This document shows, in pieces, positions 12,440 to 58,425 of a DNA stretch of 64,000 bases. The notes beneath the pieces were generated by a model. That model was not told the origin of the DNA, did not search any database, and saw nothing but the letters and a program-made list of their open reading frames with translations. The stretch is from a candidate division WOR-3 bacterium. GTDB lineage: Bacteria; Hydrothermota; UBA3072. Both the position numbers and the translations under genes were made by a program. Numbering within the stretch: the first letter of the stretch is position 1; the number at the start of each line of letters is the position of its first letter. The DNA lies in assembly GCA_016930175.1 (NCBI GenBank), contig JAFGHJ010000013.1, forward strand, positions 164,745 to 228,744, written 5' to 3'.

Positions 12440-12574
12440 CAGAGAACACAGAGAAATAATTATGTTAAAAAAGAAAAAAACACCGAGAGCACAGAGAGAA
12501 AAAGAAAATAAAAACTCTGTGTGCTCTGTGTTAAAGAAAACTGGGGTGTAGAGGGAAGGGCTCTGTGTTTTTTT
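12440..12574. repeat. word-repeat intergenic element (both arms): cacagag words then ctctgtg words plus a G-rich block, forming a long imperfect inverted repeat followed by a T7 run
   Basis: cagagaacacagag (12440-12454), caccgagagcacagagag (12481-12498), ctctgtgtgctctgtg (12515-12530), ggggtgtagagggaaggg then ctctgtg ttttttt (12561-12574). Arms are reverse complements of each other. Confidence 0.7.
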
Positions 12575-12628
12575 ATTCATTTTGCTTTTTAAATTTTGAT
12601 ATTTTATTTCCTTGGGATATCAAATTAA

Positions 12629-14647
12629 ATGAATGTCCCTGATAAAATAAAAAAAGAAGTAGAGCAACTTCGAAAGGATATCCGGTATCATAATTATAAG
12701 TATTATGTCTTAAATCAGCCTGAGATATCAGATTTCGAATTCGATTCATTGTTAAGTAAATTAAAGGATATCGAAGAAAAATATCCCGAAATGAAGGATC
12801 CTAATTCTCCGACCATGAGAGTGGGTGGGACTCCATTGGAAGGTTTTTCTCATGTTTCGCATGAACCTCCCATGTTGTCACTGGATAATACGTACAACGA
12901 AAAAGAATTGGAAGAATTTGAAGAGAGAGTTTTAAGAAATCTTGAAAATAAGGTTGATTCAGTCGAGTGGGTTGTAGAGCAGAAAATTGACGGAGTAGCT
13001 GTTTCTCTTGAATACGAAAATGGTAAATTTATTCGTGGTTCTACAAGAGGTGACGGAGTTGTAGGTGACGATATAACTCAGAATTTAAGAACCATAAAGA
13101 GCTTACCGCTCGAATTGCTGAACAACGGACAAAAATATTCACGACTCGAGGTCAGAGGGGAAGTTTTCATGCCTAATTCTTCTTTCTTAAAGTTAAATAA
13201 AGAAAAAGAGGAGAAAGAAGAGCAGCTATTCGCAAATCCCAGAAATGCCGCAGCAGGTACATTAAAGAATCTTGACCCAAGAATCGTGGCGGAAAGGAAT
13301 CTTGATATTTACATTCATTCGTACGGTACTTTACCAGGAGATATCAAAACACACAGAGAAGCGCTTGATATATTAGAAAAAATTGGTTTTAAGGTTAGTT
13401 CTGTTCGTGAGATTCGCGGCAGTATTGAACTTTCGAAGGATTTAATAAAGGAATGGAGTACAAAAAGATTTAAGCTTCCTTATCAAACAGATGGTCTTGT
13501 TTTTAAGGTTAACAATCTTCAATTTAGAGAAATTTTAGGCTCGACGTCGAAATCTCCGAGATGGGCAGTGGCATATAAATTCCCTGCGGAAAGAAAAGTT
13601 ACCCGTCTGAACGAAATAGAAGTATCTATAGGAAGAACCGGTATTGCTACTCCGATTGCTATGCTTGAGCCGGTCTTTGTGGCTGGTACAACCGTTTCGA
13701 GGGCGTCTCTTTTTAACAAGGATGAAATCGAGCGGAAAGATATTCGCGTGGGCGATAAGGTTTTTATTGAGAAAGGCGGAGATATAATTCCTCATGTCGT
13801 GGGAGTGGATAAAGACGCAAGAGACGGAAGCGAAAAGAAGTTTAAATTTCCGGATAAATGTCCGGTTTGCGGCGAGACTCTCGTTCAACCTGAAGGAGAG
13901 GTTTACTATAGATGTATAAATGTCGGGTGTCCTTCTCAGGTTAAGAAGAGTATTTTACATTATGGTTGCAGGGACGGGATGGATATTGATGGTCTCGGAG
14001 AAGTTCTTGTCGACCAATTAGTAGAAAAAGATTTAGTTTCCAATTATGCCGATCTTTATTATCTGGAACAGGGAGAAATCGAAGAACTGGAGCGTATGGG
14101 AGAAAAATCTGCAGAAAATCTATTAAAAGGTATCGAAGATAGTAAAAAAAGATTATTTGACCGTTTAGTATTTTCTTTAGGTATTCCCTTTGTGGGAACC
14201 TATAACGCGAAGTTAATTGCAAGAGAATTTTCTTCAATAGATAAGTTGAAAGACGCAACATGCGAAGCATTACTTCAAATAAAGGGAATCGGTGATAATA
14301 CAGCAACTTCGGTCGTGTCATTTTTTAAAAACAAGAAGAATCTTGCCGTTATAGAGAGGCTCCGTAAAGCCGGAGTTACGATGGAAGGTAAGACAAAGAG
14401 GAAAGGAGAACTTCCCTTGGCGGGGAAAAGCTTCGTTTTTACAGGAGAGTTAGAGAAGTATACCAGGCGAGAAGCGCAGGATTTAGTTGAACGGTTAGGA
14501 GCAAGGGCGGTAAATTCGGTTTCTAAAAATACCGATTATGTGGTAGTGGGGGAGAACCCGGGTTCGAAATTCGAGGATGCAAAGAAATTGGGTGTGAAAG
14601 TTATTGGGGAAGAGGAATTTTCGAAATTGATTTCCAAAGAAAAGTAG
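12629..14647 (+). CDS. ligA: NAD-dependent DNA ligase LigA
   Basis: Adenylation KxDG motif ([15 protein letters not shown]). Zn-finger CPVCGETL...CINVGCPSQ. HhH region. C-terminal BRCT ([46 protein letters not shown]). Confidence 0.95.
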
Positions 14648-14648
14648 A

Positions 14649-55916: not shown

Positions 55917-55983
55917 CTTATTTACAGTATACAGAGTAATGTATTTGCACGGAAAGTCAATAAGTTTTTTGGGGAAAGATATT

Positions 55984-58398
55984 TTATTTAACAGTGAAAT
56001 TGATATTGCTGGATGTATTATTATCTTTATCCGATATAGCGGTAAGACAGTATTCCCCTGGTTTGATTTGCCAGAGAAAACTGTGTTCCTTAAAGGTTTC
56101 AGTTAGTGGTTTTTCGTTTAAAAACCAGTTTACTGTTTCTTCTTTCTCTGTGGTTGTAAGTTCTATTTTTATAGATTGATATTCGGGTTTTACATTGGAT
56201 AATCGATAAAATATCGCTCCCTGTTGGGGCTTTATTATTTTAAATCTTTCTTCCTTTTTTATTTCACTGGCGGGATTTTTTGCCTCGAAACCTTCTGCCC
56301 ATTCTTCATATCTCTCCGGTAATACCGTATGGATTTTGCCTTTAATATGAGTATGCATATCGCAACTATCTTTGTAATATGAGGCAAGGTTCTCTTTGGG
56401 TATTATTTCTTCGATTGTAGAGGGACAACTATGATTCGGTTTTTTACCCGATAGGGGACAAATAGGTACCAAAGTGAGTTCTTCAGGTAAAGGTTCTTTT
56501 TCGGGATAGTCTTTTTTGCTGTAAAGTAAATGCATTATATTGGCGAATAGGGGTCCGGCTCCGGAAACACCTGAAACTTTTTGCATTGGAGTATGATCGA
56601 AGTTACCAACCCAGACAGCAAGAGTATAATCTTTGGTAAAGCCTATTGTCCAGTTGTCGCAAAAGCGGAACGAGGTTCCGGTTTTTGCGGCGCAGGGGAA
56701 AGGGAAATTAAGTACGGAGAAAAAACCGAATTCGGAGGTACGGGCAAATCTGTCACTTAAAATATCGGTTATCAAATAATTCAATTCGGGTTTAGAGATG
56801 GTTTTTTCCCTTTCTGAGTTTTTCTTTTCTTTTCCGTCAATTTCAATAATTTCTTTAATTGGAATAAAATTCCCGGAGCGAGCGATACACATATAAGCTC
56901 TTGCCAGTTCAAACAGAGATACTTCGCCTCCTCCGAGTACGAGCCCTACGCCGTAATAATCGGCATTTCTGTCCAGAGAATTAAATTCGTACTCTTTTAA
57001 ACGTGACAGGAATTTATCTATGCCTGTTTCGGCGAGAACCCTTACTGCCGGTACATTTAAAGAATTTGCCAGAGCTTCTCTTAATCTTACGGGACCGTAG
57101 AAATCTTCGGAATAGTTCTTTGGACAGTATATACCTGTGGGCATCTTGTAATAAGTCGGTATGTCCGAAACTATCGTGCTGGGTGTCAGACCGTCTTCGA
57201 AAACTAATAGATAAAGGAAAGGTTTTAACGTGGAGCCGGGTTGCCGCAAAGCTCTTACCCCATCGTTTTCGCCTTCGTTTTCTGTATTGAAAAAATCTGC
57301 TGACCCTGTATATGCGAGTACTTCACCTGTTGCGTTATCAAGTAATATGACAGCCGCGTTGGTAACGTTAAAGGGCTTGAGAGCCTTTACGACTCTACTG
57401 GTTTGCTCCAGAACGATTTTCTGCAAATCACGGTCAATCGTTACTTTGACATTCTGTACCTCTTCCGGTAATGTTTTCATCAGTGTAAAAACAAAATGAG
57501 GTGCAAGAAAGGACGCTGTTTGAGGTCTTAAGGAAATATCTTCTTTGAATATTCTGTCGATTCTTTCTTTTCCTATGAGATTTTGTTCTTCCATCTTTTC
57601 AAGAACATATTTTTGTCGTCTCTTGATTTCTTCCAGGTTATTGTAGGGGTTTAAGCGGGTTGGTGAATTGGGAATGGAAGCCAGGAAAGAAGCCTGTGCA
57701 AGAGTTAAATCCGAAGGAGATATTCCGAAGTAAGCCTTTGAGGCTCCTTCTATACCGTAAAGATTTCCTCCCATCGGTATTCGGTTTATGTATGATTCGA
57801 GGATTTTTTCTTTACTTAAACCTGCTTCAAGACGGTAAGCAAAATACGCTTCTTTTATCTTTTTTAGTAGTGTTCGCTCTCCCGGTCTCATCATTCGCGC
57901 AAGCTGAAGGGTTATCGTTGAAGCACCTGATACGATTTTTCGTTCTTTAAAATTTTGCCAGGCTGCCCTAATTATAGCCTTGTAGTCAATCCCGTTGTGG
58001 TAATAAAAATCTTTATCTTCGGAAGCTATAAGTGCTTTTATGAAGTAAGGAGATACTTGATTTAGAGCGGTGTGTATTGAGCGGCTCGAATTTTCCGACA
58101 AGACCTCCTGAAGCAATCTTCCGTCACGGTCGAAGAATTTTACAGAATGAAAACTTTCTCTCTGTAAGTCTTTTTCGGTGATTGGAACGAGATAGGGTGT
58201 AAGTCGAAACGCAAGTATAAATAAGATTATTGAACCCCGGAAGCTCTTTAGGGCTTTTTTATTATTTAACTTAAGCTTGATTTTTTTGAAAAAAAAACCA
58301 CAGAGCCCACCTTTCGCAACCCAGAATTTTTTAACCGCAGAGAGCGCAGAGCTTTTTGTTTCTCTCTGTGTTATCAGTGTTTTTTTCTTTTTTGACAC
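55984..58398 (-). CDS. pbpC: penicillin-binding protein 1C (bifunctional GT51 transglycosylase / transpeptidase)
   Basis: GT51 motifs EDKDFYYHNG and GASTITLQLAR. Transpeptidase STLKP, SxN and KTG (AAKTGTS). C-terminal PBP1C-specific domain. N-terminal about 35 residues are encoded by the repeat element, so the exact start is uncertain. Confidence 0.85.
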   Translation of the reverse strand: MSKKKKTLITQRETKSSALSAVKKFWVAKGGLCGFFFKKIKLKLNNKKALKSFRGSIILFILAFRLTPYLVPITEKDLQRESFHSVKFFDRDGRLLQEVLSENSSRSIHTALNQVSPYFIKALIASEDKDFYYHNGIDYKAIIRAAWQNFKERKIVSGASTITLQLARMMRPGERTLLKKIKEAYFAYRLEAGLSKEKILESYINRIPMGGNLYGIEGASKAYFGISPSDLTLAQASFLASIPNSPTRLNPYNNLEEIKRRQKYVLEKMEEQNLIGKERIDRIFKEDISLRPQTASFLAPHFVFTLMKTLPEEVQNVKVTIDRDLQKIVLEQTSRVVKALKPFNVTNAAVILLDNATGEVLAYTGSADFFNTENEGENDGVRALRQPGSTLKPFLYLLVFEDGLTPSTIVSDIPTYYKMPTGIYCPKNYSEDFYGPVRLREALANSLNVPAVRVLAETGIDKFLSRLKEYEFNSLDRNADYYGVGLVLGGGEVSLFELARAYMCIARSGNFIPIKEIIEIDGKEKKNSEREKTISKPELNYLITDILSDRFARTSEFGFFSVLNFPFPCAAKTGTSFRFCDNWTIGFTKDYTLAVWVGNFDHTPMQKVSGVSGAGPLFANIMHLLYSKKDYPEKEPLPEELTLVPICPLSGKKPNHSCPSTIEEIIPKENLASYYKDSCDMHTHIKGKIHTVLPERYEEWAEGFEAKNPASEIKKEERFKIIKPQQGAIFYRLSNVKPEYQSIKIELTTTEKEETVNWFLNEKPLTETFKEHSFLWQIKPGEYCLTAISDKDNNTSSNINFTVK

Positions 58399-58425
58399 AA
58401 TTTTTCTCTGTGTCCTATGTTGTTA
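58297..58425. repeat. word-repeat element spanning the A2M-pbpC junction and the pbpC 5' end
   Basis: ccacagagcccacc, ccgcagagagcgcagagc, ctctctgtgttatcagtg, ctctgtgtcctatg. Both orientations are present. Confidence 0.7.

Follow-up and report, generated by a model that had tools for sequence, protein, structure and literature searches.

The stretch of DNA analysed here, hereafter the window, comprises 64,000 nucleotides (nt) of a candidate division WOR-3 bacterium (contig JAFGHJ010000013.1, positions 164,745 to 228,744). Between the genes for malic enzyme (52526-53884) and fumarate hydratase beta (54447-55046) it carries, on the minus strand, a complete GxxExxY minigene cassette of 587 bp with its outer inverted arms (53904-54490). 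The GxxExxY gene (53932-54324, minus strand) encodes a protein of 130 amino acids (aa) with a predicted PD-(D/E)xK fold, in which Asn replaces the conserved Asp74. The 3′ arm of the cassette (53904-53931, minus strand) reads T-CTTAGTG-T-CTTGGTG-C-CTTCGTGGCTA in the sense of the gene and starts 1 nt past the stop codon, with words at +2, +10 and +18. Upstream of the gene, an inner 5′ arm (54332-54354, minus strand) presents CACAAAA-A-CACTAAG-G-CACAAAG at -30/-22/-14; AAAATAA and then the ATG come next. The outer 5′-type arm, TAGCCACGAAGGCACAAAGACACAAAGA (54463-54490, minus strand), shares sequence with the 3′ end annotated for the fumarate hydratase open reading frame (ORF); this arm and the 3′ arm are 93% complementary and 531 nt apart. 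Since the fumarate hydratase beta ORF extends into the outer arm, the C-terminal tail annotated for it consists of translated repeat. In the relative L252, the fumarate hydratase gene call reaches the GxxExxY start codon. Arrays of similar words lie in the intergenic DNA of the window, and here we analyse these arrays, their tie to the GxxExxY cassette and their probable origin.

Word arrays are enriched in the intergenic DNA of the window

A preliminary description of the window had listed 14 loci between 12440 and 58425 as a strand-asymmetric family of short-word arrays with common cores. The described arrays were found at all 14 loci, always within or at the edge of intergenic DNA, and the array, core and repeat scans bore out the existence of such a family. 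Exact 6-mers recurring at 7-12 nt formed 5.5 clusters per kb in the intergenic DNA, which totals 5.66 kb, and 1.13 per kb in coding DNA, an approximately 5-fold difference. The proposed k-mer enrichment was likewise upheld, with 30 intergenic clusters compared to 5.7 ± 1.9 (maximum 11) in composition-preserving shuffles. Most arrays share one vocabulary, C-R-C-N-R-A-G, represented by CACAGAG, CACNAAG, CACGGAT and CGCAGAT. Of the arms with at least two C-R-C-type words, 29 lay in or near intergenic DNA (approximately 5.5 kb) and 3 in coding DNA (58.5 kb), compared to 0-1 in shuffles. Most of the window arms stand alone, without a partner, and an exact 6-mer was repeated three times at a constant period in only 4 places.

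The 28-nt core TTAGCCACGAAGGCACTAAGACACAAAG occurred four times at up to 3 mismatches, exactly at the positions reported for it, versus 0 expected, while CACAGAGNNCACAGAG was seen 12 times in the window versus 0.01 expected. The repeat scan also recovered the cores ATTCTCACACAAAG... and TTAGCCACGGATT... as dispersed repeats. In contrast, the proposed core TTTTTGGNTGGTGGGGCGTT gave 0 matches at up to 1 mismatch and does not exist as written; the two sites claimed for it have in common only TGGTGGGGCGTT and a T-run, with an intervening indel. Homology beyond the words was detected in the repeat scan in the form of a module of 78 nt (14862 and 19534), a match over 32 nt at 97% and another over 88 nt at 72%. 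Other details of the description had to be corrected. To call one strand almost devoid of G and T was too strong, as 14649-15441 holds 15% G and 26% T, and a start within 0-3 nt of a stop codon applied to ligA and the GxxExxY gene (0-1 nt) but not to the lysA-like and the FAD/geranylgeranyl-reductase genes (approximately 7-13 nt). In line with the preliminary description, which had recognised no described repeat class, the arrays matched no catalogued RNA family; an Rfam search was empty at the gathering score and also at E ≤ 0.5.

Word arms enclose GxxExxY genes in unrelated bacteria

The link to GxxExxY came from a search for proteins recurring beside the arrays in unrelated phyla, which brought up small GxxExxY proteins. 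The gene had previously been noted only as a neighbour of an array; its association with the arrays and the spread across phyla and viruses are added here. The full-length cassette measures approximately 0.45-0.6 kb and consists of a promoter-less GxxExxY (PF13366) gene of approximately 125-140 aa between inverted tandem-word arms. The 5′ arm contains 2-4 tandem words at an 8-nt period, usually starting with (A/G)CCAC, and is followed by a short purine-rich stretch resembling a ribosome-binding site and then by the gene. The inverted 3′ arm ends in GTGG(T/C) and, in the subfamily of the window, begins 1-2 nt past the stop codon. This cassette seems never to have been described before.

Word arms or word hairpins were present at the ends of 21 out of 21 distinct GxxExxY cassettes, some of them from cultured bacteria (window, L005, L006, L020, L065, L079, L083, L252, L262, L272, L273/L274, L275, L349, L352, L355, L358-L361, L362 and L370). 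Among them, 15 showed a purine-word arm upstream and its inverted (pyrimidine) partner downstream. In the nine cassettes fetched by protein alone, arms reached 11.1 per kb at 90 nt or less from the gene ends versus 0.13 per kb elsewhere. The geometry was also preserved: words at -30/-22/-14 relative to the ATG and at 2-3/10-11/18-19 nt from the stop codon were found in the window and also in L252 (a relative), L006 (Desulfobacterales) and the metagenome loci L262, L272 and L274, making 6 out of 11 tabulated cassettes, and again in L370, likewise a metagenome locus, while L005 (Ignavibacteria), L273 and L275 had the same downstream words with a shifted or truncated upstream arm.

The orientation of the cassette coincided with that of the upstream host gene in every case with called neighbours, and the downstream gene was also co-directional in nearly all of them; in Symmachiella the downstream genes converge. 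Lying between host genes and co-directional with the upstream one, the cassette is presumably read from host transcripts. Cassettes occur within essential operons (fabD-fabG, ruvB-trkA and a CRISPR-Cas operon, CRISPR denoting short palindromic repeats that are clustered and regularly interspaced) with no apparent harm. The type of word differs by protein lineage, the more distant family members using other words built on this skeleton: CACNAAG in the window type, CACGGAG in Symmachiella dynata, CGCGAAG in Sphingomonas parapaucimobilis, where the cassette lies between fabD and fabG, CACAGAG/CGCAGAG/CACGGAG in Bacteroides finegoldii, CACAGAG in Bernardetia and CGCAGAG hairpins in Gemmatirosa. 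The CRISPR-Cas insertion belongs to a GC-rich metagenome organism (L362), in which a CGCAGAG-armed cassette has a Cas02710-family gene on one side and cas6 on the other. A published pipeline was led astray by a GxxExxY gene adjacent to a CRISPR-associated reverse transcriptase (bioRxiv 10.1101/2021.01.26.428298).

Another type of minigene was seen in L262, where a PF05635 '23S rRNA intervening sequence protein' gene (2751-3191) lies two genes downstream of the GxxExxY cassette, past a ParA-like gene. Its arms are a purine-word GGACGAAG... and a pyrimidine-word ...CTTCCGTC. A second minigene family (PF05635) may thus follow the same arm design.

The words are common to many phyla and to viral contigs

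The 24-nt arm pattern CCACGAAGNCACNAAGNCACNAAG was found at a minimum of 120 genome loci, from more than 120 species, versus approximately 0.3 expected from the pattern length and database size. The loci belonged to Bacteroidota, Ignavibacteria, Planctomycetota, Acidobacteriota, Chloroflexota, several proteobacterial classes, Verrucomicrobiota, Omnitrophota, Cloacimonadota, WOR-3 and others, in genomes of 32-74% GC. In the IMG/VR viral contigs, CCACGAAGNCACNAAGNCACNAAG occurred in 50 stretches, with 0 in the permuted control, and a three-word CACAGAG arm in 70. When the seeds were masked in 740 kb of foreign-phylum flanks, the top tandem 7-mers were CACAGAG, CACGAAG, CACAAAG, CGCAAAG, CACGAAT and CGCAGAT. 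These are the window's own vocabulary, indicating that the words are not peculiar to the window genome. Outside the window, arms usually form inverted pairs with the purine-word arm first (136 versus 19 with it second); in other phyla the pairs lie mostly 3′ of genes (46 tandem, 21 convergent and 8 divergent), and they are sometimes nested one within another.

The protein is similarly widespread. Identity was 58-73% among the proteins of the WOR-3 window, Ignavibacteria, Desulfobacterales and Anaerolineales, and 73-90% among the best 120 database matches listed. A profile scan of the viral contigs for GxxExxY genes gave 90 pattern matches, 0 of which were confirmed, and no GxxExxY genes were found in cultured phage records.

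The viral and foreign loci also revealed composite structures. Phages L223 and L233/L249, whose flanks are approximately 93% identical, conserve an outer CACGAAG hairpin, the loop of which holds in L223 an extra inner hairpin of GGTTCARR/TGAAC words; the two arms of this inner hairpin carry the same core word at a period of 8 versus 7 nt. L040 contains a whole word hairpin in four tandem 109-nt copies (4760-5180). L049 (3640-4065) and L085 (290-800) contain several nested or interleaved word hairpins, and another widespread palindrome, GTCATTGCGAGCGAAG...CTCGCAATGAC, lies at the centre of L049.

Gene-less arms and modules of the window

Within the window, gene-less arms of the CAC-N-AAG type were located on the plus strand at 14649-14676, 1 nt past the ligA stop codon, and at 18176-18203, flanked by two divergent promoters; the repeat scan placed others at 14916-14939 (module M3), 19588-19611 and 48717-48739 on the same strand and at 41241-41255 on the minus strand. 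Plus-strand CACAGAG arms at 12438-12453 and 12481-12496 have an inverted partner at 12515-12530 on the minus strand, the whole spanning 12438-12530. Four more (14845-14860, 15003-15018, 15030-15045 and 15188-15203, plus strand) belong to a 794-nt mosaic located 3′ of ligA, and single CACAGAG arms are found at 19499-19514 (plus), 41345-41360 (minus) and 44556-44571 (minus). Two CACAGAG/CGCAGAG arms occupy 48588-48626 (plus), a CACAGAG arm is followed by a CACGAAA/CACTAAA arm at 52347-52413 (plus), and 58336-58379 combines a CGCAGAG arm on the plus strand with an inverted CACAGAG-type arm on the minus strand. A CACGGAT arm with an 11-nt period at 14761-14787 (plus) has a second copy at 15104-15120, and CGCAGAT arms (39036-39052 and 39126-39142, plus) stand on either side of a CTAAC array.

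Larger modules were also recognised. Module M2 (14862-14904, plus) joins a conserved linker, A-run/TTTTTTGTTGTTTAAAAC, to a C-rich block and recurs at 19534-19576 and in relatives. Module M4 (48637-48700, plus) is a word hairpin of four TTGGTC and four ACCAAC words, also present at a non-orthologous site in the relative L135; no gene link was found for it. An AGCGGA array with a G-rich block (30059-30147, plus), which is not of the C-R-C word type, lies directly 5′ of a TTGACA promoter. Arrays were absent from the intergenic regions 16982-17721, 20224-20337, 25415-25683, 27139-27290, 28122-28297 and 37339-37828.

As for the gene context, eleven co-directional plus-strand ORFs (1-12307) precede the first array and ligA, and the first intergenic gap of at least 40 nt begins at 12308. 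The sole clear canonical intrinsic terminators of the window (51633-51676 and approximately 17650-17690) lie in array-free intergenic regions. The window encodes proteins with type IX secretion sorting tails, in keeping with a WOR-3 origin, and the gene for a secreted protein with such a tail (48983-51613) contains a 273-nt tandem duplication, 87% identical (50762-51319).

The arrays turn over rapidly among relatives

Approximately 20 syntenic relatives, retrieved by a metagenome scan with the window pyruvate kinase, have genes 75-84% identical to those of the window. At the fumB-maeB site, the cassette was present in the window and in L252-L261 and absent in L135 and L131, and the cassette-less sites of relatives held other arrays. 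Array length at one orthologous site ranged from 108 to 410 nt, while array orientation was kept per site. Two relatives that are 98.7% identical overall (flanking blocks 99.4% and 98.2%) differed by an unalignable segment of 130 versus 64 nt. Arrays also switched word in concert between relatives, for example from CACAAAG to CACAGAG, and a composite module occurred at non-orthologous sites, window 48587-48740 resembling L135 9746-9950. These observations point to a dispersed, fast-turning-over family of elements.

Several arrays lie directly upstream of promoters of the TTGACA-N17-TAnnnT type, and the arrays could be direct-repeat binding sites for a transcription factor, such as the response regulator with OmpR/PhoB geometry suggested in the preliminary description. 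The 8-11 nt periods and the position just 5′ of the -35 boxes at several promoters would suit such sites. However, at orthologous promoters the -35 and -10 boxes were kept whereas the upstream words differed wholly in number and identity, and many arrays follow convergent genes. Together with the modules at non-orthologous sites, this wholesale replacement of words rules out fixed regulator sites, and a regulatory role of this kind appears extremely improbable. DnaA boxes, Chi/KOPS-like skewed octamers, uptake sequences, attC sites and primase sites were discarded by inspection only, as their motifs or distribution did not fit.

Rapid turnover could also mean that the arrays are neutral filler, generated by replication slippage or template switching of 7-11-nt units in tolerant intergenic DNA. 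Polymerase slippage has been proposed for heptamer repeats in other bacteria (PMC4692102; PMC4679880), and the segment that differs between nearly identical relatives, the length variation at a single site and the concerted word change of whole arrays between close relatives are all what it would produce. In contrast, slippage cannot account for identical words across phyla and viral contigs (permuted control 0), a fixed geometry around one gene family, the polarity of the arm pairs (136 versus 19) or dispersed homologous modules with conserved non-repetitive linkers. The conservation of words across phyla refutes slippage acting alone, and we regard neutral filler as improbable. Slippage, which had been among the roles first considered, does contribute, given that arrays switch word whole between relatives 95-96% identical in their flanks, but as the sole process it is poorly supported.

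The arms are conserved as words and not as a helix

We then asked what constrains the arms, using 49 hairpins in which both arms fit a three-word skeleton and taking as free positions the fourth base of the word and the base between words. The free positions were Watson-Crick paired in 18-29% of cases, compared to 27-36% expected if the arms were independent, while the base just outside CCAC/GTGG paired in 47 of the 49 hairpins. No sense-strand bias was found, either in G-U versus A-C mismatches (34 versus 41) or in folding energy, which favoured the sense strand in 20 hairpins and the antisense strand in 29. Since the free positions do not covary, the arms are conserved as words and not as a base-paired helix. 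Such conservation agrees more closely with a protein recognising the two inverted ends than with a selected RNA stem. A directional RNA hairpin was dropped on the same mismatch and energy counts. The suggestion that the elements are small RNA genes fared no better, in view of the empty Rfam search, the lack of strand bias by either measure and the free positions without covariation.

The predicted stems are nevertheless very stable (mean -38 kcal/mol), which counts for the main rival explanation: the word hairpins would be expression signals of the host or phage (RNase III sites, 3′-end stabilisers, terminators or insulators), and the minigenes would merely sit inside them, where they can be looped out or excised without harm to the operon, as is the case for intervening sequences in 23S rRNA. 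The position of the elements agrees with this, as those of other phyla lie mainly after genes, in the contexts counted above, and those of viral contigs fill short gaps between co-directional genes. The PF05635 gene, annotated as a 23S rRNA intervening sequence protein, is itself bracketed by arms, and RNase III is the enzyme that cuts rRNA intervening sequences out at the stems on either side of them. Canonical intrinsic terminators are also scarce in the window; terminator-like sites numbered 13 versus 15.6 and 19 versus 17.0 expected from shuffles, and none beyond chance were found in the arrays. On the other hand, a structural signal needs no identical 7-nt words across genomes of 32-74% GC, most window arms are partnerless, and the hairpins show neither sense-strand bias nor covariation at the free positions. 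We consider it unlikely that the arrays are primarily such signals.

The scarcity of canonical terminators bears equally on the proposal that the C/A-rich arrays are Rho-loading rut sites, ending transcription after genes without intrinsic terminators. In the window, 8 out of 11 gene-following arrays had more C than G on the sense strand of the gene. When tandem contexts after stop codons were counted in the window and relatives, however, the C-over-G orientation prevailed by only 19:13, and one orthologous site, from ogt to the C25-peptidase gene, kept a GT-rich sense strand in every relative. Moreover, arms elsewhere form long stems, the opposite of an unstructured rut site. A Rho role for the arrays, suggested in the earlier reading of the sequence, is very improbable.

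The GxxExxY protein has a predicted nuclease fold

The product of the window ORF belongs to the GxxExxY family, with 132.7 bits against TIGR04256 (cut-off 35) and 125.9 bits against PF13366 (cut-off 22). The family comprises 16,579 clusters at 50% identity; a survey (PMC3424549) records it from prokaryotes and viruses as of unknown function and as having undergone 'multiple transfers'. No paper on PF13366/GxxExxY function turned up in our literature search. AlphaFold2 modelling with a diverse alignment reached a pLDDT (predicted local distance difference test score) of 92 and a pTM (predicted template modelling score) of 0.85, while a shallow alignment gave a pLDDT of 41.6. The protein is predicted to be a nuclease of the PD-(D/E)xK fold with a D...ExK motif, the putative catalytic residues being Asp74, Glu84 and Lys86. 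No solved structure was matched by sequence, and Foldseek against the PDB returned only weak PD-(D/E)xK matches. Some proteins of approximately 270-295 aa (P0242, P0248) hold two GxxExxY domains and could be either tandem cassettes read as one ORF or fusions.

A mobile cassette as the probable source of the arrays

Taken together, the results make it probable that the C-R-C-N-R-A-G arrays are the end-repeats of a horizontally spreading GxxExxY cassette, together with its gene-less derivatives and relics, remodelled by slippage. The GxxExxY nuclease would recognise the tandem words at both ends and set the cassette in motion, whether through homing into arms already present or through a step akin to transposition. 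Loss of the gene would leave arms and hairpins behind, and these could come to greatly outnumber the genes, as MITEs (inverted-repeat transposable elements of miniature size) do their parents. In this WOR-3 lineage, the arms would have been shuffled into mosaics that turn over quickly by slippage and recombination, and effects on transcripts through stems or processing would be secondary. A broader proposal is that GxxExxY cassettes form an unrecognised class of mobile minigenes of approximately 450 bp, whose nuclease reads end words spaced by 8 bp and copies the unit into other arms, seeding thousands of gene-less arrays in bacterial and phage genomes. We hold this tentatively, as somewhat less than an even chance.

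Several points weigh against a cassette origin. The window copy carries a D74N substitution (RLDVL to RLNVL) that removes the predicted catalytic Asp, present in all aligned homologues, so that this copy may be inactive. Its residue 113 is Pro, versus Leu or Ile in homologues, and the gene looks, on these substitutions, like a decaying copy. One GxxExxY gene stands against 29 arms in the 64 kb. Neither a target-site duplication nor a clean empty-versus-filled junction was found; approximately 20 elements inspected by eye had no consistent direct repeat, and their TTAA/TA flanks were indistinguishable from an extension of the palindrome. Mobility is inferred, as are the binding and cutting of the words by the GxxExxY protein. 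Gene-less hairpins had no preferred orientation to neighbouring genes (10 versus 16, in a test biased by the search pattern). Other genes, including a PF05635 minigene and some phage ORFs, are bracketed by arms too, and the GxxExxY gene might just have a preference for inserting into hairpins that were there already and serve the host. Finally, the CTAAC, TTCAAC, TTGGTC/ACCAAC, AAATCC and AGCGGA arrays and the C-rich blocks are not demonstrably linked to the cassette.

Word arrays of this kind are common in environmental bacteria and viral contigs and are listed in no catalogue. Their tie to a gene gives the PF13366 protein a testable substrate, its own arms, gives the repeats an origin, and accounts for breaks in assemblies and for small false ORFs at array sites. 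If GxxExxY cassettes are indeed a class of mobile minigenes, a large body of unannotated intergenic repeats would be explained, including spurious hypothetical peptides of the 'HEGTKG / FVSLCL' type, and there might be a new route by which DNA units of very small size pass from one phylum to another.

Comparison with known systems

The preliminary description had set the elements apart from CRISPR and from repetitive extragenic palindromes (REPs), and both exclusions hold. The repeat scan of the window contained no family of 24-48 nt repeats with regular unique spacers. REPs, with the bacterial interspersed mosaic elements (BIMEs) and the REPIN-RAYT systems, are likewise extragenic palindromes, found singly, as inverted pairs or in mosaics; they favour the 3′ ends of genes and flank a small gene of nuclease type, present in single copy, with which they are associated (PMC3733652, PMC3116915). 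A REP, however, is an imperfect palindrome of 20-40 nt with a GTAG/CGTC tag at one end (PMC3733652), while the arms described here start with (A/G)CCAC, end with GTGG(T/C) and lack the tag. They are, moreover, word arrays with unpaired free positions, and the gene that they flank has a predicted PD-(D/E)xK and not an HUH/Y1 fold (profile libraries were run on approximately 20 of the 48 window ORFs). A published survey of GTAG/CGTC REPs does not cover these elements, and a literature search for the words themselves returned nothing relevant.

Closer in appearance are the heptamer repeats, namely the cyanobacterial short tandemly repeated repetitive sequences (STRRs), GGGAATC of Xanthomonas and TAACTGA of Beggiatoaceae, Cyanobacteria and Bacteroidetes (PMC4692102, PMC4679880). 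These are also iterated short words in intergenic DNA, found in both orientations near gene ends and variable in length and sequence between close relatives, and TAACTGA repeats are common to distant phyla by a mechanism not known (PMC4692102, PMC4679880). The heptamer repeats are nevertheless near-perfect head-to-tail iterations, often in many copies, whereas the present arrays have 2-4 imperfect copies at 8-11 nt, inverted arms and a linked gene; the near-perfect 7-nt iteration at a constant period that typifies STRRs was not observed.

Free-standing homing endonuclease genes and the 23S rRNA intervening sequences that carry PF05635 resemble the cassette in being small selfish ORFs within inverted repeats, inserted without harm to the host, patchy and horizontally transferred. 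The ORF with the predicted nuclease fold is indeed patchy among relatives at fumB-maeB, and protein identities of 58-90% across phyla speak for horizontal transfer. Unlike homing endonuclease genes, the cassette is inserted in many unrelated intergenic gaps, with no defined homing site known, and its nuclease activity is a prediction. The very small dispersed repeats of Nostoc, reported by Elhai et al. in 2008, are said to be tiny, apparently mobile units in hairpin or tandem-repeat contexts with no known mechanism; their sequences differ from those described here, and reportedly no gene was associated with them.

The MITEs and the Correia/NEMIS elements of Neisseria are also short intergenic units with inverted ends, in which gene-less copies outnumber gene-carrying ones, nesting occurs, and locations near gene ends or inside operons are frequent. 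Terminal inverted repeats are a feature in common, as seen in the polarity of the arm pairs and the complementarity of the window arms (136 versus 19 and 93%). No consistent target-site duplication was found in the approximately 20 elements inspected. In contrast to MITEs, the ends consist of 7-nt words repeated in tandem every 8 nt, the same across phyla, instead of a unique inverted repeat. The sole cargo is a promoter-less PD-(D/E)xK gene of approximately 390 bp and not a DDE transposase, so that, in place of a known transposase parent, the only gene-carrying form encodes a PF13366 protein. Altogether, we would file the GxxExxY cassette as a small selfish element with non-autonomous derivatives.

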